9,822 bases of DNA. It comes from a virus (Duplodnaviria; Heunggongvirae; Uroviricota; Caudoviricetes). The stretch lies in the IMG/VR virus record IMGVR_UViG_2537561934_000018; one strand, 5' to 3'. The position numbers and the translations under genes are program-made. This document shows, piece after piece, positions 1 through 9,822 of this stretch. The notes beneath the pieces are model-generated. The model did not search any database. It saw only the letters and a program-made list of their open reading frames with translations, and was not told the origin of the DNA. Position 1 is the stretch's first letter. The number at the start of each line of letters is the position of its first letter.

Positions 1-960
1 TTACTCCTTGTTCATTGCGTACAGCCCATTAACCAGAGCAAACTGTGGCACCCCGTCCGCGATGAAAGTCGCATTAACTCCGCAGGCTTCGCGGATAGCG
101 GGTGCCACAATCTCCGCCCCGCCACCGACAACCATCACCCGCCCGTAACCCGAAAAAACCGCCAGCGCGCGGATCACGCGTTGTTTCAGTGTTTCTTCCT
201 TTTCACGAATAACCGCCATCAGGCTGGCGTAATGCGCGTCATTGTGGATGTGCTGGCGCAGCCAGGCTTCATCATGGCGATGTTCGATAATGGTATTGGC
301 GATGTGGTGACTGGTGCGCATACCGTTAGTGGCCATCACCGACAGTACGGCATCGGCCATCAGAGAAACGCCTACGTGTGGATCGCAAAACACCTGGCTG
401 ATACCTGCCAGTTGCCCCTGAACCTTTGCCACATCCAGCGTGGTTCCGCCCAAATCCACAATCAGCAGGGATTCAAACGGACTCATGTCAGCCAGTGCCT
501 TAAAGCCAGCCGGAATGGATTCAGGCATAACCCGCACGTTACGGATAGTGAATGCTTCGCCGTTCTGGTACTCCACCGGGCGCATAACGTTCGCTTTTTT
601 GCGGTTGATGTTGGCCATGTCCGGCTGTGCGTTTGTGTCGAAATATTCGCTCAGTGGCAGGGTGACAACCACATCCACTTCCTGTGGTGTGATGCCTGAT
701 TTGACCAGCGCGTGATGAATGGCAATTACATTCACATCGCTGTACTGGTATTGCGTGTCGGTCGTCTGGACAAAGCGATCGCTGACCGGATCAAAACCAT
801 AGCGCACGCCATCAAGCATGTAGTTCGCGGGCTGCGTGCCACCGAACGGCGCAGACCATTCCGACTTGAAGCTGTTTGGGCTGATGGCGTTGCGGCGTTC
901 GCCGTTCTCAGTCCATGCCAGCTTGATGTTGGTGGAGCCGTCATCGATACAAATTTTCAT
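1..960 (-). CDS. ParM/StbA-family actin-like ATPase (319 aa), complete ORF
   Basis: ORF track 1..960; stop TAA is the reverse complement of 1-3 and ATG is at 960-958, preceded by an AAGGAAAAG Shine-Dalgarno. N-terminal IDDGSTNIK motif plus DLGGTT and VVGGGA motifs are typical of actin-fold ATPases. The N-terminal ~110 aa closely resemble plasmid R1 ParM (StbA) as I recall it. The start overlaps the last 20 nt of the upstream A gene. Confidence 0.8.
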   Translation of the reverse strand: MKICIDDGSTNIKLAWTENGERRNAISPNSFKSEWSAPFGGTQPANYMLDGVRYGFDPVSDRFVQTTDTQYQYSDVNVIAIHHALVKSGITPQEVDVVVTLPLSEYFDTNAQPDMANINRKKANVMRPVEYQNGEAFTIRNVRVMPESIPAGFKALADMSPFESLLIVDLGGTTLDVAKVQGQLAGISQVFCDPHVGVSLMADAVLSVMATNGMRTSHHIANTIIEHRHDEAWLRQHIHNDAHYASLMAVIREKEETLKQRVIRALAVFSGYGRVMVVGGGAEIVAPAIREACGVNATFIADGVPQFALVNGLYAMNKE

Positions 961-3859
961 GTCGCTTTTCCTTATGTTGATTAATTAATCGTTTACGGGA
1001 TTCTGAAATCCCGTTTTTGTCCTGTTTTATGCGCGCTTCATATATCGCGGCGCGTTTTTGCTCATTTACGGGATTTGTGAATCCCGTTTCTGTCTGTTTT
1101 TTGTTTCCACTGGTCAGGCCACCCCGCAGCAGGTCTGCTTTGCGGCGGGCGCGTTCAGTGGTTTCACTGATTCTCTGTGCGTGCTCTGCGTCGCGGATGG
1201 CGCGCAGCATGTCAGAAAGCACGGTAACGGGTGTTTTCATGGTGTTCTGGTCTTGCTGAAGTGTGGATGCCAGGCGTGCGGCGGCTTCGGGGTCTGATGT
1301 CCCCAGCTGTTCCAGATAGCTGGCGACCGGGTTATGGCGGATCTCCGTACTGCTTACGCCGTGGTTACGGCTCAGGCGCTGCCAGAGCTGCGTGATCCGG
1401 CTGTCCGGTCGGGTATCCGGTTTGCGTACAATTTCAAATCCCTGCGGTGCAATGTTGCTGCCGTCAACGTACAGACTGCCGCCCCGTAACAGGTGCTGCA
1501 TCTGCTGTTCACCGATATGCAGGCCGAGAGATTCAGCAGACTCCCGCCATTCTTTAGCGAGTAGTTCGTGGTTATCAGGCAAAGGCCGCTGCTGTTTGCG
1601 GCTCTGTGTCCAGCTCTGCATTTCATCACGGCTGTTTTTTGCCTGTTTGTCACGAAGCGAACGCATCAGCGCCCGGCGTTCGTGCCGTTTCAGTGAGCGC
1701 ATCCATTCGTTCACTTCAACGCCGTCAGGGAGCTGCGGCCACGGTGCTGGCCGTTCTTCCGGCTGTTCTGTCCCGTTGTTGTCCGTTTCCTGTACACGGG
1801 GACAGTTATTGCCACGAGTCCAAGGGGCGGCAGGGCCGCCCTGAAGGTCAAAACCATTTTCGCGGGCGCTGTCTTCCGCTTCCGGTTTACGTCTTACCAG
1901 CTTCCAGTTATCCGGATGCGTGCACACGCGGGAAGACTCCCCGATGAGCGGCGACCAGATCCCGTAAATCTGTACGCTCTGTTCGCCGTAATCGTTCAGC
2001 CCATCTGCGAGGTCGTAGGCGGTGCGAATCAGGTAGTCTTTGCGTGGAACAAGTACGCCGCCCTGTTTCTCTATGTAGGTGGCAAAACATCCGGCATCAG
2101 CGGCAGCGAGTACCGCATCCATTGCGTCATCCTTCAGCCGTTGCGGGCCTTCCGGGTTGCGTGCCATCTGGCTGGCAAGGCGGCGCAGCTCACGCCACAC
2201 TTGACGGGAGGGGATGCCAAAGAACTGGAACTGGCGGACGCGGTGAAGGCGTGCCCAGCCGATGGCGCGCTCCACGCTCTCGGCCATTGATTTTCCGGTT
2301 TCGTGGTCAACGCGTGGCTTGCCCGTTTTCGGGTCGATGCCATCCACGGCGTGGCTGTCCAGGTTCTTTCCGATGTAGGTGGCGATGTAGCTGGTTGGCG
2401 TGCCTTTTGAGCCGTCGACGTACTCCGCCTTAAAGCGCGGAGTAATATCATTGCCCAGTTCGTGGCGGTCTTCCTGAATGGCAATATCGCGGGTGTGGGA
2501 CACAATGGTGTCGATTTCTTCCGGATGAGCAAAGACCATCATATGCCAGTGCACGGTGCCGTCATGGTGAGGCTCCACCGTGCGGATGCCATACCAGCGC
2601 AGGCCGTCGCGGTTCAGTTTTTTGCGGACCGCCGCAAAAAACGTGTTAACCAGGTAATCGCTGGAGTCGCGCATGGTGGCCCCGTTCCATTTGGGATTCG
2701 GATGACCGTTCTCTGTTGTGGCGTGGTATTTTGACGGGCAGGTGACAGTCAGAAACACCGCTTTGTCGCCACGGGCTTCGGCCAGAAGTTCCAGTCCCTT
2801 CATGGTGGCCGTCATTTCTGCCTTACGGTGAACCGGGTTACTTACTCCCGCGTAATACACCGTCTCGAGATCAATCGTGAACCCGTCTTCATTTTCCAGC
2901 ATGAAACTTTTCAGGAAATCGCGTGTTTTCTCGCGCTGTGCGCGAAACTCGCTTAACGCGTCCTGGCTCAGATAGGGTGATGTTTTTCTGGAAACCAGAC
3001 AGGCGGCGCGGAGTTGTTCTTCCCGCCACTCACAACGTAACAGCCACAGTTTGCGTTTCCACCAGTCCGCACAGGTCAGGCGAAGGATTGCGCCCGGCAG
3101 CAGTTCCGTGTCCGGTTCGTTCCTCCGGTCTTTGTCTGTTGTCAGTGCGTCATAATGTGGAGGCATGGCGTGCAGGTGTAACGCCATGCGGGCCAGCATC
3201 TGATACGCCTTCAGCGTTACATCCATGGTCAGCTCGCCATCTCTGGCACCGAAACCATCACAGAGAGTCTCAAAGGTGCTGCTGAACATTGCCGCCGTCA
3301 TGGTGGCCAGCGTCTGTATCTGGTGCTTGTTAAGCTGCGGCAGGTAAAGCAAATCGTCCAGGCGTTCGCGTCCGGCAAGGGCGCGATAACCCGGTGTCAG
3401 CCAGCGGCTGTCGGTGCGCTCCAGACGTTCGAATATTTTGCGCAGGGTTCCGTGCGCGTAGCGTTCTGCCTGCCAGCTCTTTTTGCCTTTCCGGCGATCG
3501 ACTTCCTGTTTTTTGCGCAGGAAAGAGAGGTGGCGAATAAGCGGATCGCGCAGATAGGACGGCAGCAGGCGCAGCGAGGCCATGGCTTCATCCACCGCGC
3601 CGCGTGCCTGTTTTCTGGCGTCTCCTGCCAGTGTGATGGTTTTGTCCTGTTTTTCCTGTGCGTCCAGGCTTTTATTAATCAGGTTGCCCAGCGGCGTGGC
3701 GGAGAACGCCGCATCAGCCATTTCCTGGCGGCGCTCGTTCTCTGCCCGGTAGGCATCCAGCCAGGAGGAAAGCGCGGATTCAGGAGCGGGGATCCCCGTT
3801 CCTTCACGCCCCACTGCGTGGCGCGGTTGTTGCCAGTCCCTGATGTACTCCGTTGACAT
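941..3859 (-). CDS. P2 gpA-family rolling-circle replication initiator (HUH endonuclease), 972 aa
   Basis: ORF track 941..3859; ATG at 3859-3857 with a GGAG about 10 nt upstream. HUH-type motif HWHMMVF is encoded at 2531-2551 and the paired-tyrosine motif YIATY at 2375-2389 (verified by reverse-complementing the DNA). This matches the two-tyrosine active site described for phage P2 A protein. Position immediately downstream of the cox-side early genes is as in P2. Confidence 0.8.
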   Translation of the reverse strand: MSTEYIRDWQQPRHAVGREGTGIPAPESALSSWLDAYRAENERRQEMADAAFSATPLGNLINKSLDAQEKQDKTITLAGDARKQARGAVDEAMASLRLLPSYLRDPLIRHLSFLRKKQEVDRRKGKKSWQAERYAHGTLRKIFERLERTDSRWLTPGYRALAGRERLDDLLYLPQLNKHQIQTLATMTAAMFSSTFETLCDGFGARDGELTMDVTLKAYQMLARMALHLHAMPPHYDALTTDKDRRNEPDTELLPGAILRLTCADWWKRKLWLLRCEWREEQLRAACLVSRKTSPYLSQDALSEFRAQREKTRDFLKSFMLENEDGFTIDLETVYYAGVSNPVHRKAEMTATMKGLELLAEARGDKAVFLTVTCPSKYHATTENGHPNPKWNGATMRDSSDYLVNTFFAAVRKKLNRDGLRWYGIRTVEPHHDGTVHWHMMVFAHPEEIDTIVSHTRDIAIQEDRHELGNDITPRFKAEYVDGSKGTPTSYIATYIGKNLDSHAVDGIDPKTGKPRVDHETGKSMAESVERAIGWARLHRVRQFQFFGIPSRQVWRELRRLASQMARNPEGPQRLKDDAMDAVLAAADAGCFATYIEKQGGVLVPRKDYLIRTAYDLADGLNDYGEQSVQIYGIWSPLIGESSRVCTHPDNWKLVRRKPEAEDSARENGFDLQGGPAAPWTRGNNCPRVQETDNNGTEQPEERPAPWPQLPDGVEVNEWMRSLKRHERRALMRSLRDKQAKNSRDEMQSWTQSRKQQRPLPDNHELLAKEWRESAESLGLHIGEQQMQHLLRGGSLYVDGSNIAPQGFEIVRKPDTRPDSRITQLWQRLSRNHGVSSTEIRHNPVASYLEQLGTSDPEAAARLASTLQQDQNTMKTPVTVLSDMLRAIRDAEHAQRISETTERARRKADLLRGGLTSGNKKQTETGFTNPVNEQKRAAIYEARIKQDKNGISESRKRLINQHKEKRHENLYR
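995..1087. repeat. Tandem pair of perfect 8-bp-stem palindromes (ACGGGATT-N4-AATCCCGT) 73 bp apart, flanking a GC-rich palindrome, each followed by a T-run on the + strand
   Basis: Hairpin 1 is 995-1014 (loop CTGA) followed by TTTT to 1018; hairpin 2 is 1068-1087 (loop TGTG) followed by TTTCTGTCTGTTTTTT. Flanking sequence is about 85 percent identical over ~38 bp. A GC-rich palindrome at 1031-1054 is followed by TTTTT (1055-1059). All lie inside the last ~55 codons of the A ORF and 35-130 bp upstream of the ParM-like start. Confidence 0.6.
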
Positions 3860-3865
3860 GCTGAC

Positions 3866-4231
3866 TTACTCCGCTTTGCCGCTCAGTGCGGCGTGGCAGA
3901 CGGCAGCCAGCCGCTGAATTTCCAGCACGGTGTCTTCTGTGTCGGCATGGCGATGTGTGATGCGGGTGCTGTCGGCAATCACATCGACGATTGCAGAGGA
4001 TGGGCGCTGGTAAATGCCAATAACGGACGGGGTGCCACCTTCAATGCGGTAAAGCCTGTAATTTCCCTCGTGGCTGTCAATCATGTAACGACCATCAATA
4101 ACAATCTTTCCGTCAGCGAGCTGCGGTACAGGCAGGGATTTCAGGTACATGTCATAACGATCACGCACGCGAGCGGCAAGATCACGCTCTGTGTTGAGCA
4201 GGTATTCAAGAAAGTCGTTGGCGAGAATCAT
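3866..4231 (-). CDS. Hypothetical protein, 121 aa, immediately upstream of the A gene
   Basis: ORF track 3866..4231; ATG at 4231-4229 with an AGAGGA Shine-Dalgarno ~9 nt upstream. Its stop TAA (3868-3866) lies 7 nt before the A start. Balanced amino-acid composition, unlike the antisense + strand ORF 3893..4396. No motif recognised. Confidence 0.5.
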   Translation of the reverse strand: MILANDFLEYLLNTERDLAARVRDRYDMYLKSLPVPQLADGKIVIDGRYMIDSHEGNYRLYRIEGGTPSVIGIYQRPSSAIVDVIADSTRITHRHADTEDTVLEIQRLAAVCHAALSGKAE

Positions 4232-4303
4232 TGCGGCAATCCTCTTGTTACAGATGTGCGAAGGCCTCCCGCCGCAAGGTGCAGGAAAGGCCTGGTACCG
4301 GAA

Positions 4304-4534
4304 TTAATGGAGTTTGTTTTGCTGCTGGATGAGATCCTGAAGAGACAGGAGGTCTTCCGCCAGATAGCTGAATACAGCGGCGCAGTAGTCGGCTGAAATA
4401 GTGCTGTTGAGTCTGTGCAATGTGTTGGATTGCATGATAAAGGCGATGTGTGCAGCGCGGGTGAGTCTGCGATCGATTTCAGTCTGGATGTGACGACGTG
4501 CAGCGTATGCGCGCTGTTGTTTGCGGTTTGCCAT
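4304..4534 (-). CDS. Hypothetical small protein, 76 aa
   Basis: ORF track 4304..4534; ATG at 4534-4532 with an AGAGG about 9 nt upstream. The Shine-Dalgarno region is part of an 11-bp inverted repeat (see repeat 4544..4635). No motif recognised; coding status uncertain. Confidence 0.4.
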   Translation of the reverse strand: MANRKQQRAYAARRHIQTEIDRRLTRAAHIAFIMQSNTLHRLNSTISADYCAAVFSYLAEDLLSLQDLIQQQNKLH

Positions 4535-4543
4535 GGTGTGGCC

Positions 4544-4635
4544 TCTGTAGTTGCAAGTTTTGAAAACTCACCATCCAGAGGTGGAAAACTCGGGGCGGTG
4601 AGACGTACAGGGTTTCCACAACCGGCAACTACAGA
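4544..4635. repeat. 11-bp perfect inverted repeat (TCTGTAGTTGC at 4544-4554 and GCAACTACAGA at 4625-4635), with a third 9-bp copy CTGTAGTTG at 4740-4748
   Basis: Read directly from the sequence. The proximal arm abuts the Shine-Dalgarno of the 76-aa ORF and the third copy lies inside the loop of the terminator hairpin at 4721-4755. A GC-rich stem-loop with a UUCG loop on the - strand RNA (4640-4659) sits next to the distal arm. Confidence 0.55.
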
Positions 4636-4713
4636 ACCCGGCCCGACCGAAGTCGGCCCCATACGCCCCACCATAATTCTGACGCGAAAAAGACGTGGCG
4701 ATACAGTACGCAC

Positions 4714-4755
4714 AAAAAAACCGCTGGCGCGGTTGTGCGCTGTAGTTGTCAGCGG
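4714..4755 (-). terminator. Candidate rho-independent terminator for the SPFH cassette transcript
   Basis: On the - strand the sequence reads CCGCTG...CAGCGG (4755-4750 and 4726-4721), with an inner ACCGC-GCCA-GCGGT hairpin (4733-4720), followed by seven T (4720-4714). Confidence 0.5.
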
Positions 4756-4870
4756 GGTGGAAATCCCGGCACCCGTTTTATGAGGTGCAGCGGAAATGTA
4801 ACCTGACTGATTGCGGCATGGCAAGCGGTTTTTTTGTGAGAACGGCATACTAAAAAATCCTGATACTGCT

Positions 4871-4901: not shown

Positions 4902-5732
4902 TTACTTCACGGGAACGAACGGAACAGCGGTGTTACTGGTCATGTATTGCGGCAGCGTGCCGTTCCATTTGTTGATCGCTTCCAGCTCCATAACGCCGGG
5001 ATTCTGGCGCAGAGCTTCGCCGCGTAAACGAATGGCGTCGGCTTCAGCCTGGGCTTTTGTGCGAATGGCATCGGCCTGTCCGGCAGCTTCTGCGCGCAGC
5101 ATGTTGGCTTCAGCTTCGCGTTGCTTGACTTCCTGTTCACGTTGCAGGGTTTTCTGGTTTGCCGTGACTTTGGCGTTAATGCTGTCGATAACGGTTGGCG
5201 GATATTCCGGTTTACCGACATAAGAGAGGCTCATGACCTGAATGCCGATGGGGGTCATCTCTTCCTGAATATCTTTAAGTGCTGAATCCAGCAGTTCAGA
5301 CTTACCACCGTCGATAAACTTATCGGTGGTCATTTTGCTGGCCAGTCGGTTGAGTGCATCGGCGATCTTCTGGCGCAGGTCAGTGTCGGTAATGTCATCC
5401 ACGCCTTTGCGGTAGGTCTGAAACACTGTGGTAACTTTGGATGGATCAACCTTGTAGGCCACACCGATGTGATAGCCGATGGTTGTGCCGTCACTCATCT
5501 GGAAGCTGAACGGCTCATCGTAGGTCTTCATTTGTTTGAAGGTCGGGAAGATGTAAACCTCTGTATTCCAGCCTGTCCAGTAGCGGCCAACGCCAACCAC
5601 TTCACCGACTCCTTTGTCGTCGCCCAGTTTGTTGACTTTGATGCCCACATTACCTGGCTCAACGCGATCGCAACCAACCAGCAGGATGGCGGCAAAAAGC
5701 GGGATAATCTGAAAGAGTCTGAATTTCTTCAT
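4902..5732 (-). CDS. SPFH/Band-7 (stomatin/prohibitin/HflKC-like) domain lipoprotein, 276 aa
   Basis: ORF track 4902..5732; ATG at 5732-5730 overlaps the upstream stop (ATGA), with an AAGGAA Shine-Dalgarno. The N-terminus MKKFRLFQIIPLFAAILLVGC is a lipoprotein signal with lipobox LVGC, followed by Asp at +2. The central region resembles an SPFH domain and the C-terminus is the Ala/Glu/Arg-rich coiled-coil tail typical of HflK/HflC and prohibitins. Fold assignment is by eye. Confidence 0.65.
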   Translation of the reverse strand: MKKFRLFQIIPLFAAILLVGCDRVEPGNVGIKVNKLGDDKGVGEVVGVGRYWTGWNTEVYIFPTFKQMKTYDEPFSFQMSDGTTIGYHIGVAYKVDPSKVTTVFQTYRKGVDDITDTDLRQKIADALNRLASKMTTDKFIDGGKSELLDSALKDIQEEMTPIGIQVMSLSYVGKPEYPPTVIDSINAKVTANQKTLQREQEVKQREAEANMLRAEAAGQADAIRTKAQAEADAIRLRGEALRQNPGVMELEAINKWNGTLPQYMTSNTAVPFVPVK

Positions 5733-5932
5733 TGTTTGATTTCCTTGATGTACTTACTGAAAAGGCGAACAACGCCTGCCGGGTACAGCATGGCAATGAA
5801 AATGCCCAGCAATACCAGGAAGGAGCTGTCTGATGAAATCATTCGGGGGAGTAGTCCTGCATACAGAATGAGAGAAATGAGGACGCATACCAGCGCCCAC
5901 ATGTATGCGCGAAACCAGGTCTTTTTGTTCAT
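5729..5932 (-). CDS. Small membrane protein with two predicted transmembrane helices, 67 aa
   Basis: ORF track 5729..5932; ATG at 5932-5930 overlaps the upstream stop (ATGA) and its own stop overlaps the SPFH start. Two hydrophobic stretches (roughly residues 8-28 and 38-58) are separated by a short polar loop. Confidence 0.6.
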   Translation of the reverse strand: MNKKTWFRAYMWALVCVLISLILYAGLLPRMISSDSSFLVLLGIFIAMLYPAGVVRLFSKYIKEIKQ

Positions 5933-7926: not shown

Positions 7927-8352
7927 TTATGCTGCTTTACCGCTGATGTTTCTGTTTCGTCTGCCACTTGTTGGCTTAAACAAAAACAGACGGTTTTCCC
8001 AGTCGTGCCATTCCTGAGGTGCGTTTTCGATGAGGCGATCGCATGCTTCATCCCACGCTTTTCTGTTGATGTAGAGTTCAGCGTTTCCGCCTGGTTTGAG
8101 AGGGTCCGCCATATACACCGCAGGTAGCTTTCCTGCTTTGGCCATGCTTACGATGGCGTCAACGGTCTTTCCGATATACATCGCAAATCCTTCTTTTGAC
8201 AGGAGATGCGAGGGATTTTCTGAAAGTCGAATTTCTTCACGTTCACGTGCTTTGCGTCCTGTTTTTTGATGCTCACCTTCTGGCATTTCTGACAGGTGAT
8301 CGCATCGTGTTCCGCAAAGTGACTCAGGCGCGTTTTGAGTGCTTTCTTGCAT
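7927..8352 (-). CDS. cox: Cox-like excisionase/transcriptional regulator (P2 Cox family); start uncertain
   Basis: The C-terminal ~85 aa (GFAMYIGKTVDAIVSMAKAGKLPAVYMADP...) resemble P2 Cox as I recall it. It is the first gene transcribed divergently from the C repressor. Start chosen at ATG 8352-8350 because of a GGAGG Shine-Dalgarno 7 nt upstream. The track ORF extends to a GTG at 8391, and an ATG at 8181 with an AAGGA Shine-Dalgarno would give an 84-aa product closer to P2 Cox in length. Confidence 0.55.
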   Translation of the reverse strand: MQESTQNAPESLCGTRCDHLSEMPEGEHQKTGRKAREREEIRLSENPSHLLSKEGFAMYIGKTVDAIVSMAKAGKLPAVYMADPLKPGGNAELYINRKAWDEACDRLIENAPQEWHDWENRLFLFKPTSGRRNRNISGKAA

Positions 8353-8423
8353 CTGATATCCTCCGCCATTGGTGCTCTTTCTAATTGGCACTAGTTGGAA
8401 CCACTTAGAACATTTGTTTGCTG

Positions 8424-8466
8424 TTCATATGTGGTGTTAATCTACACATATGTAGGAGTTTGTCAA
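8424..8466 (-). promoter_or_regulatory. Candidate early promoter Pe with two direct-repeat candidate operator half-sites flanking the -10
   Basis: On the - strand, -35 TTGACA is the reverse complement of 8461-8466 and -10 TAGATT is the reverse complement of 8439-8444, with a 16-bp spacer. Direct repeats CATATGT at 8426-8432 and 8447-8453 are 21 bp apart and bracket the -10, like the arrangement I recall for P2 C operators. Not experimentally mapped. Confidence 0.45.
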
Positions 8467-8760
8467 ATGGACATTCCTCAAAAAATTCGCGTCATGCGCA
8501 AATCTGAAGATCTCACTCAGCGGGAATTCGCTGATATGATTGGAATTTCTTATTCTGCTCTGACCAGTTATGAGTATGGTCGTAACCTTCCTGGCCTTGA
8601 GATCACTATCAAGCTTTTCAAGCACCCGAGATTTTCTAAATACCGCGACTGGTTTCTGTTTGATGAAGTTGAACCCAAGGCCGGGCAGGTTGTACCGGCT
8701 CTCGCACACATTGGGCAAGGCGAAGCGGAATCATCCCGCTCCGGCAAGAAGACTGGTTAA
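8467..8760 (+). CDS. C: P2 C-type immunity repressor, 97 aa
   Basis: Start trimmed from track ORF 8395..8760 to ATG 8467, which has a GGAG Shine-Dalgarno 8 nt upstream. The protein (MDIPQKIRVMRKSEDLTQREFADMIGISYSALTSYEYGRN...PALAHIGQGEAESSRSGKKTG) resembles P2 C repressor along its whole length as I recall it. It sits directly upstream of, and co-oriented with, the integrase. Confidence 0.85.
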   Translation: MDIPQKIRVMRKSEDLTQREFADMIGISYSALTSYEYGRNLPGLEITIKLFKHPRFSKYRDWFLFDEVEPKAGQVVPALAHIGQGEAESSRSGKKTG

Positions 8761-8826
8761 CGGTTCACCAGGCATTTATTTCCCAGAGCTGTGATCAAGA
8801 TGATGTTTTCATTGGAGGGCTTCCTT

Positions 8827-9822
8827 ATGTCGATTAAGAAGCTCGCTAATGGCAAATTCTGTGTGGACGTGCGGCCAGCTGGATCAGAAGGAAAAAGATT
8901 CAGGCGGCGATTTGATACTCGTGGTGAGGCTGTTTTGTATGAGCGTCATGTATTGCAGCATTACCACGACAAAGACTGGGTTGATAAGCCAACAGAACGG
9001 CGCTCGCTGAGGGAGTTGCTGGATTGTTGGTGGCTATACCACGGGAAAAATCATCCTTACGGTGCGATGGAGCGAGTGCGTATTTCTGCGGTCATTAGTG
9101 ATCTTGAAAGTATTAATGTTACACGCAGCGACCAACTTACTCGTAAGAACATAATTAATTATCGGTTATTGTTGCTTAACCGCGGAATAAAACAATCCAC
9201 GGTTAATCGTTATTGCGCAATGATGAGTGGTTTCTTCACAAAACTAATTGACGCAGAGGAATATTCTGGGGCTAATCCGTTTCATGATGTGAAAAAACTT
9301 AATATCAAACAGCCTGAAATGGCTTATTTGTATCATGAAGATATTCCACGATTACTGGAGTTGTTATCTGGTGATGAATTAAAAGCTGTCTTGTTGTGTC
9401 TGGCAACAGGTGGAAGATGGAGTGAGGTTGCAAATATCAAGGGGGAGCATGTTATTAGCGGCAAAGTCATTTTTATGGAAACCAAAAATGGGAAGCGTCG
9501 CGTTATACCTATATCGTCAGAACTGGAGTGCATGATTAAAACAAAGGCCACTGGTCGTTTAATTTATCCAAGTTATGCCGCTGTCAGAGCTGCTATCAGA
9601 AAGGTGAGGCCCGATCTTCCTGAAGGGCAGTCAATACATGTTTTACGGCATACCTTTGCCACTCACTTCATGATTAATGGTGGGAATATCATCACTTTGC
9701 AGAGAATACTTGGGCATAGCACTATTCAGCAGACGATGACTTATGCCCATTTTGCACCGGATTATCTGCAGGATGCTGTGCGCTTTAATCCTGTGGCTGA
9801 GTTGTCCAGATATTGCCCATAA
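8827..9822 (+). CDS. int: Tyrosine integrase, P2 Int family, 331 aa
   Basis: Start trimmed from track ORF 8791..9822 (GTG) to ATG 8827, which has a GGAGGG Shine-Dalgarno 7 nt upstream. The N-terminus MSIKKLANGKFCVDVRP and the C-terminal catalytic region (TGGRWSE, HVLRHTFATHFMINGG, LGHSTIQQTMTYAHF, i.e. the R, H-x-x-R and Y motifs) closely resemble P2 Int as I recall it. Stop TAA is at 9820-9822, the end of the window. Confidence 0.9.
   Translation: MSIKKLANGKFCVDVRPAGSEGKRFRRRFDTRGEAVLYERHVLQHYHDKDWVDKPTERRSLRELLDCWWLYHGKNHPYGAMERVRISAVISDLESINVTRSDQLTRKNIINYRLLLLNRGIKQSTVNRYCAMMSGFFTKLIDAEEYSGANPFHDVKKLNIKQPEMAYLYHEDIPRLLELLSGDELKAVLLCLATGGRWSEVANIKGEHVISGKVIFMETKNGKRRVIPISSELECMIKTKATGRLIYPSYAAVRAAIRKVRPDLPEGQSIHVLRHTFATHFMINGGNIITLQRILGHSTIQQTMTYAHFAPDYLQDAVRFNPVAELSRYCP

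Follow-up and report, generated by a model that had tools for sequence, protein, structure and literature searches.

The window, by which we mean the whole stretch of 9,822 nucleotides analysed here, comprises the part of a P2-type temperate phage that covers lysogeny and the early genes; it is read from right to left and ends at its left edge with a gene for a type II partition ATPase. The features on which the analysis draws are listed below.

1–960, minus strand: parM, type II partition actin-like ATPase of 319 aa, complete, with ATG at 958–960 and stop at 1–3
969–973, minus strand: parM Shine-Dalgarno AAGGA, a good ribosome-binding site 8 nt before the ATG, read from the sequence
977–989, minus strand: conserved ATTAATTAATCAA box just upstream of the ribosome binding site, kept in the E. 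coli, Plesiomonas and Hafnia lineages
995–1014, no strand assigned: proximal box, palindrome ACGGGATTCTGAAATCCCGT, 73 bp from the distal box
1020–1059, minus strand: two 1-nt indels in an alignment with 12 relatives, an extra A at 1020 and A5 instead of A6 at 1055–1059
1068–1087, no strand assigned: distal box, palindrome ACGGGATTTGTGAATCCCGT with the core GGG-N10-CCC, inside the 3' end of A
941–3859, minus strand: gpA replication endonuclease (gene A), 972 aa in the window, Pfam PF05840 Phage_GPA with E 1.5e-129, directly upstream of parM and in the same direction
between A and Cox, minus strand: a series of small early genes
7927–8391, minus strand: Cox, intact
8395–8760, plus strand: helix-turn-helix repressor, intact
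8791–9822, plus strand: tyrosine integrase, intact

Positions 1–4298 shared 96.8% nucleotide identity with Escherichia phage P88, with the same gene order from int to parM, and about a dozen further relatives matched this interval, including PhiSM of Citrobacter rodentium. By identity and synteny, the window is a member of the P88 group (Peduoviridae, genus Xuanwuvirus). The ParM of P88, which is annotated as such in P88 and by PGAP, is 99% identical to the ParM of the window; gp17/gp18 of P88 and their equivalents in PhiSM, P884B11 and the O157 prophage Sp13/CP-933T share this level of ParM identity, the neighbouring genes and the palindromic boxes. The window differs from the P88 group only in the two indels, which extend A, while accessory genes of the early region vary between relatives.

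Two RNAs were detected in the early region with Rfam, a C4 antisense RNA at 4591–4678 (minus strand, RF01695, 76.8 bits) and an isrK Hfq-binding RNA at 4714–4788 (minus strand, RF01394, 63.6 bits). Both lie just upstream of a 76-aa ORF (4304–4534); P88 and EDL933 have counterparts of this ORF, which carry the annotation 'derepression protein'. The arrangement presumably resembles the RNA-controlled antirepressor cassettes of P4/P1 style, here within a P2-type phage, and may perhaps be related to the reported mitomycin inducibility of Sp13 and P88. A 206-aa ORF at 4228–4848 with a weak Ash match was rejected as a gene and is probably spurious, because it overlies the two RNAs and the derepression ORF. 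At 4902–5932 on the minus strand, the early operon also encodes an SPFH/Band 7 lipoprotein of 276 aa (Pfam E 5.7e-31) and, after and overlapping it, a 67-aa ORF, which corresponds to an annotated membrane protein in P88; a search of this region against PADLOC gave no significant match, with a marginal E of 0.008 for the 67-aa ORF.

A preliminary description of the window had reported a complete ParM/StbA gene co-oriented with A, and this was confirmed by both Pfam domains and by a full-length alignment to R1 ParM. Residues 1–157 were assigned to StbA_N (PF06406, E 1.8e-82, 275 bits with a cut-off of 24.6) and residues 159–316 to the C-terminal domain PF21523 (E 6.3e-69, 231 bits with a cut-off of 27.4), the two together covering residues 1–316 of 319 above the curated cut-offs. 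Residues 2–316 aligned with R1 ParM (PDB 1mwk, E 7.3e-93), and around half of them were identical by eye. The nucleotide-binding motifs IDDGSTNIK, MPESIPAG, DLGGTTLD and GGGAE were identical in R1 ParM in a residue-by-residue alignment; they contain the phosphate 1 motif (DDGS), the catalytic glutamate (in PES), the phosphate 2 motif (DLGGTT) and the adenosine motif (GGGAE). The ATTAATTAATCAA box upstream of the gene is possibly a promoter or operator element.

The same description had noted that no ParR-like partner was visible. This holds for the 9,822-nt window, which contains no parR gene, but the partner lies 4 nt past the parM stop, just beyond position 1 of the window, in every relative examined (P88, TUM1881, E. 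albertii, Salmonella, EDL933, the circular record pZ1323PEC0009-2 and five of five contigs with a ParM identical to that of the window). ParR has 102–104 aa and matches Pfam Plasmid_stab_B (ParR/StbB) with E 1.6e-24. A PDB sequence search with ParR returned chance antibody matches only, and the family assignment therefore rests on Pfam and on the conserved termini. At least three alleles were found, which share an N-terminal RRISFYLKP/QRAAFLAGLAL and a C-terminal N-I-x-x-x-F-P tail and are joined by unrelated linkers, while the ParM beside these differing alleles stays at least 97% identical at the protein level. The pattern suggests recombination inside the operon or a fast-evolving disordered linker. 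The three alleles are 52–64% identical to each other (locus L001, which is P88, 8685–8996; L003, 6965–7279; L016, 10965–11279). About 5 nt past the P88 parR stop, there is a 10-bp GC-rich hairpin (L001, 8656–8679) followed by a weak U-tract on the coding strand, which may mark the end of the early operon. ParM and ParR are very likely a working pair that acts on phage DNA.

The A and parM reading frames overlap by 20 nt (941–960) in the window, as had been described, but the overlap is not conserved: the relatives have a spacer, of 76 nt in 11 sequences and of 25 nt in one (L018). The two 1-nt indels bypass the usual A stop (equivalent to 1038–1040), so that A is extended from 940 to 972 aa and runs 20 nt into parM; they may be genuine or an error of sequencing in a homopolymer. 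In general, gpA varies in length at its 3' end, with forms of 940, 946, 957 and 972 aa; single-base indels right before the stop account at least for the forms of 957 and 972 aa (L018 9950–9976 and window 1020–1059). From this polymorphism, it follows that the last 30 or so residues look dispensable, or that homopolymer errors are present in some assemblies. Between A and parM, no terminator-like site was found on the minus (coding) strand, and no internal promoter is claimed, because the promoter scan of this interval gave no consensus sigma-70 site.

Upstream of parM, both 20-bp palindromes (ACGGGATTnnnnAATCCCGT) sit within a 40-nt direct repeat, and these two are the only good copies of the box in a complete 34.5-kb phage genome. 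The distal GGG-N10-CCC is kept at the equivalent site in E. albertii, Plesiomonas and Hafnia. Box spacing was 73, 72 and 73 bp in three lineages whose ParM is only 62% identical, always at most 130 bp upstream of parM. The flanks have diverged in Plesiomonas and Hafnia, yet two GGG-N10-CCC boxes remain at an unchanged distance from the ATG, and the motif occurs only 3–7 times per 10–15-kb locus. The inner 10 nt are not self-complementary in these two genera, with GGG and CCC fixed, which favours a protein-binding site over an RNA hairpin. The palindromes score as intrinsic terminators on the non-coding strand only, and a role in RNA or termination is thus still conceivable. The proximal box is imperfect in O157-type alleles, which have CCT for CCC. 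Co-variation of the ParR alleles with the box sequence was looked for and none was found, since the DNA-reading N-terminus is invariant.

The two boxes are probably a minimal centromere (parC) or an operator, to which ParR would bind. Compared with the roughly ten iterons of R1 type, two boxes are few, and they could therefore be an operator only. The Serratia and Enterobacter lineages have a single long inverted repeat with GGGAAC arms instead, and the plasmid-type relative L013 has an array of about ten TATCTC iterons in two clusters. The phage version of this candidate centromere is strongly reduced relative to plasmid relatives and is comparable to the four-repeat srpC of SXT/R391.

The P2 layout given in the preliminary description (A, orf91, tin, old, cos) was found to be correct, and parM lies in the interval from A to cos/portal, which P2 uses for orf91, tin and old (the gpA-gpQ hotspot). 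As orf91 alone is co-oriented after A in P2, with tin and old opposed, parMR stands where orf91 does in P2, as the last part of the early operon; like parM in the window, orf91 overlaps or abuts the A stop. Both tin and old are conversion genes that vary and are read in the opposite direction, whereas parMR is fixed and resembles the backbone. At an identity of at least 95%, parM was present in 1303 of 5426 complete E. coli genomes, and a full-length copy was found in 1279 genomes as against 1322 with this type of A. GC content was 0.52–0.56 for parM and 0.54–0.60 for A, and accessory genes were AT-richer. The cassette is thus a fixed backbone module of P88-like phages and not variable cargo.

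These results do not agree with the proposal that the gene is variable, anti-phage cargo, nor with the view that parM is atypical for a P2-like phage, as orthologues also occur in four other genera. Had homologues been a standard component downstream of A in P2-like phages, the observation was to count as routine; this is largely the case in the P88-like lineage, although P2 itself lacks parM. The suggestion that parM is the first gene of cargo continuing past the window edge was right in that more genes follow, but parM does not belong to them: the variable hotspot is the interval from parR to the portal gene Q. There, P88 encodes a ClpX-type zinc-finger protein and TUM1881 Ead/Ea22-like proteins; contigs with a window-identical ParM encode a 280-aa protein with a DUF4760 protein (L016, 11362–12741), Serratia encodes HicAB (L006, 8450–9084) and Enterobacter a KAP-family NTPase (L008, 8411–9757). 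Some of this cargo may include defence candidates.

The location in the P2 defence hotspot interval (PMC9122126) and the hypervariable ParR linker, with three alleles beside a nearly constant ParM, would fit a function in conflict, be it incompatibility exerted through ParR/parC on plasmids or superinfecting relatives, or an unrecognised gpA-gpQ defence system. A PADLOC scan of ParM, ParR and the neighbouring cargo gave nothing relevant, and the defence-system reading was dropped on the lack of a match for ParM or ParR. Fixation in the lineage, the backbone-like GC content, the distance to the nearest plasmid ParM (only about 52% identical in PLSDB) and the invariance of the DNA-reading strand of ParR also speak against a role in conflict, which we regard as very improbable.

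Among P88-like prophages, parM is under purifying selection, with dN/dS of 0.01–0.17 in 20 of 21 pairs; the outlier (0.30) rests on six differences only. Together with an ORF that is intact in about 1280 genomes and a position kept across genera at 54–62% identity, the strength of this selection makes it hardly credible that the cassette is an inert relic of an old plasmid-phage recombination with no present function. Such a relic would be consistent with the reduction of the centromere relative to plasmid relatives and with the fact that no functional test is on record, the searched literature having yielded no experiment on the parMR cassette.

In a search of 5.8 billion proteins, ParM identity showed a gap between 92% and 62%, below which were diverged relatives from Hafnia and Plesiomonas (62%), Serratia (58%) and Enterobacter ludwigii (54%). 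P2-like prophages of these four genera share the order gpA, zero to two ORFs, parM, parR, cargo and portal. A contig scan with a single protein gave three near-identical loci only, and the diverged relatives were obtained from the protein search together with gene context. Relatives at about 50% identity were located in an integrated plasmid (Rep3, ParAB) and a conjugative element (TraG/TraU). A neighbour-joining tree placed the phage proteins in two phage-specific clades, E. coli with Hafnia and Plesiomonas, and Serratia with Enterobacter, each with 100% bootstrap support. The union of the two clades received 49%, and either one or two ancient captures from plasmids are therefore possible. 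One P88-like prophage with a ParM 98% identical to that of E. coli was found on a 226-kb contig labelled Vagococcus sp., a Firmicute (L004, NZ_JBQPOM010000071.1); this contig probably reflects contamination or an assembly under the wrong label.

In complete E. coli genomes, 1441 of 1443 parM places were chromosomal, and the prophages were located beside pheA, yecA and other sites. Measured against what defines a phage-plasmid, the lysogenic form was chromosomal in nearly all cases, and integrase and Cox were intact; a regular episomal lifestyle, as considered in the preliminary description, was not seen. PLSDB records with both A and parM were mostly replicons of 228 kb to 1.4 Mb. The exception is pZ1323PEC0009-2 (NZ_CP148288.1), a circular record of 34,461 bp that corresponds to a complete P88-like phage genome including the integrase; its genes include parMR, a Hok/Gef gene and one for a Com-like regulator together with a DNA methyltransferase. 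Strain Z1323HEC0067, from the same series, has an identical phage in its chromosome, and the chromosome of the strain with the circular record was not found in the E. coli collection. The 34-kb circle fits an occasional episome, and it fits equally well excised DNA caught by the assembler.

On the strength of this circle and of its integrated twin, P88-like phages could be true phage-plasmids, which regularly persist as low-copy plasmids with ParMRC as their maintenance system, an idea put forward by Pfeifer et al. 2021 and Rousset et al. 2022. Against it stand the chromosomal places, the size of the other PLSDB records, the intact repressor beside integrase and Cox, and the possibility that a lone circle is excised or induced DNA. 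Moreover, replication of P2-type phages depends on gpA, which is under immunity control. We consider regular persistence as a plasmid quite unlikely.

Extrachromosomal circles do occur in the group. The defective prophage Sp13 of O157:H7 Sakai spontaneously excises, circularises and replicates, about 30-fold more with mitomycin C (PMC2669165). The matching EDL933 prophage (CP-933T) keeps the genes from int to A-parM-parR, and its head genes are replaced by an IS element. Sp13 and the EDL933 prophage were matched by described features (the sole P2-like prophage, an epsilon-like gene and lost morphogenesis genes) and not by coordinates.

Among known systems, R1 ParMRC (StbAB) is matched in the full-length ParM alignment, a ParR of the Plasmid_stab_B family, the order parM-parR and the presence of upstream repeats. 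It differs in that the host here is a phage of P2 type, which integrates; the cassette is an addition to the gpA operon, and a consensus promoter for it alone was not detected; and two palindromic GGG-N10-CCC boxes 73 bp apart stand in place of about ten 11-bp direct iterons. The phage ParR is also shorter (102–104 aa) than its relatives, because an internal segment is missing. Outside the P88 group, the sole deposited phage with a detectable homologue was the plasmid-prophage D6 (48% identity, StbA-type stability protein). D6 is a P1-like prophage maintained as a plasmid, and in its 91-kb genome the homologue bears the annotation of a plasmid stability/partition protein, whereas the P88 group was integrated in more than 99% of cases.

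Two further systems belong to normally chromosomal or prophage elements. SrpMRC of the SXT/R391 integrative and conjugative elements lowers the loss of the excised replicating form, and its srpC is a compact centromere of four 13-bp repeats upstream of srpM (PMC4489591). It resembles the phage cassette as an actin-type partition system in a normally chromosomal element; it differs in being only distantly related to R1 ParM/ParR, in its control by SetCD and in belonging to a conjugative element and not to a phage (PMC4489591). AlpAC/alpS of the Corynebacterium prophage CGP3 is switched on soon after excision, and efficient replication of phage DNA requires it (PMC4446434). It likewise pairs a prophage actin-like ATPase with a DNA-binding adaptor, which binds upstream of its own operon, but it belongs to another actin-like family and another host phylum, and its adaptor gene precedes the ATPase gene.

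The AlpAC requirement in CGP3 replication (PMC4446434), combined with the place of the cassette at the end of the early replication operon, raises the alternative of an organiser of the lytic cycle, in which ParR-box-ParM complexes would spread or position rolling-circle monomers and aid replication or packaging rather than inheritance. We regard this as unlikely: the cassette is intact in the O157 remnant prophage, which has no head genes, and about three quarters of E. coli P2-like prophages, in the estimate of Rousset et al. (PMC9122126), replicate without it.

The best reading, to which we would give about an even chance, is that the cassette segregates transient extrachromosomal phage circles replicated by gpA. 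Going by gene order, parM and parR would be the last genes transcribed in the early replication operon (cox...A-parM-parR). ParR, a predicted ribbon-helix-helix adaptor, would bind the GGG-N10-CCC boxes at 995–1014 and 1068–1087, and filaments of ATP-bound ParM, captured by the ParR-DNA complexes, would push sister circular genomes apart. The system would be active only in the extrachromosomal replicating circle, that is after infection or once the phage has excised, spontaneously or on induction. By passing the element to both daughter cells, it would chiefly prevent its loss in a transient plasmid-like phase, on excision or before integration, and more efficient replication is a possible second benefit. 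P2-type phages without parMR, including P2, do well, and any benefit must therefore be conditional. Segregation of this kind would parallel SrpMRC of SXT/R391.

A bolder version, which we put forward tentatively and hold to be possible rather than probable, is that Enterobacterales P2-type phages with an old, phage-adapted ParMR and a two-box centromere have a facultative plasmid phase, even in the defective Sp13, in which circles would be partitioned and would persist for generations.

Parts of this are in print. Rousset et al. 2022 surveyed the gpA-gpQ locus, and their paper contains both the partition system and the episome idea (PMC9122126); Pfeifer et al. 2021 pointed to P88 as a candidate phage-plasmid that may have both an integrated and an episomal state (PMC7969092); and in Magaziner et al. 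2019, the gene of PhiSM is listed as one for a plasmid stability protein (PMC6456863). With both the observation and the episome hypothesis published, the finding is already known. It is real but ordinary, parM-parR being a standard, annotated part of very common P88-like E. coli prophages. The present analysis adds where ParR lies, that the overlap is specific to the window, that phage ParM proteins form clades of their own and that the two-box site is conserved.

The gene itself is minor, being 99% identical to the P88 gene and occurring in roughly one in four complete E. coli genomes. The main question is why a phage that integrates maintains, under purifying selection, a complete partition system of plasmid type. 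Should this system stabilise an episome, transient or facultative, this would bear on prophage loss, on carrier states and on the mobility of defective prophages in pathogens such as O157:H7, and mechanistic work would gain a ParR-binding site that is minimal by nature. If the facultative plasmid phase is true, the line between prophage and plasmid would be blurred in about a quarter of E. coli P2-like prophages.
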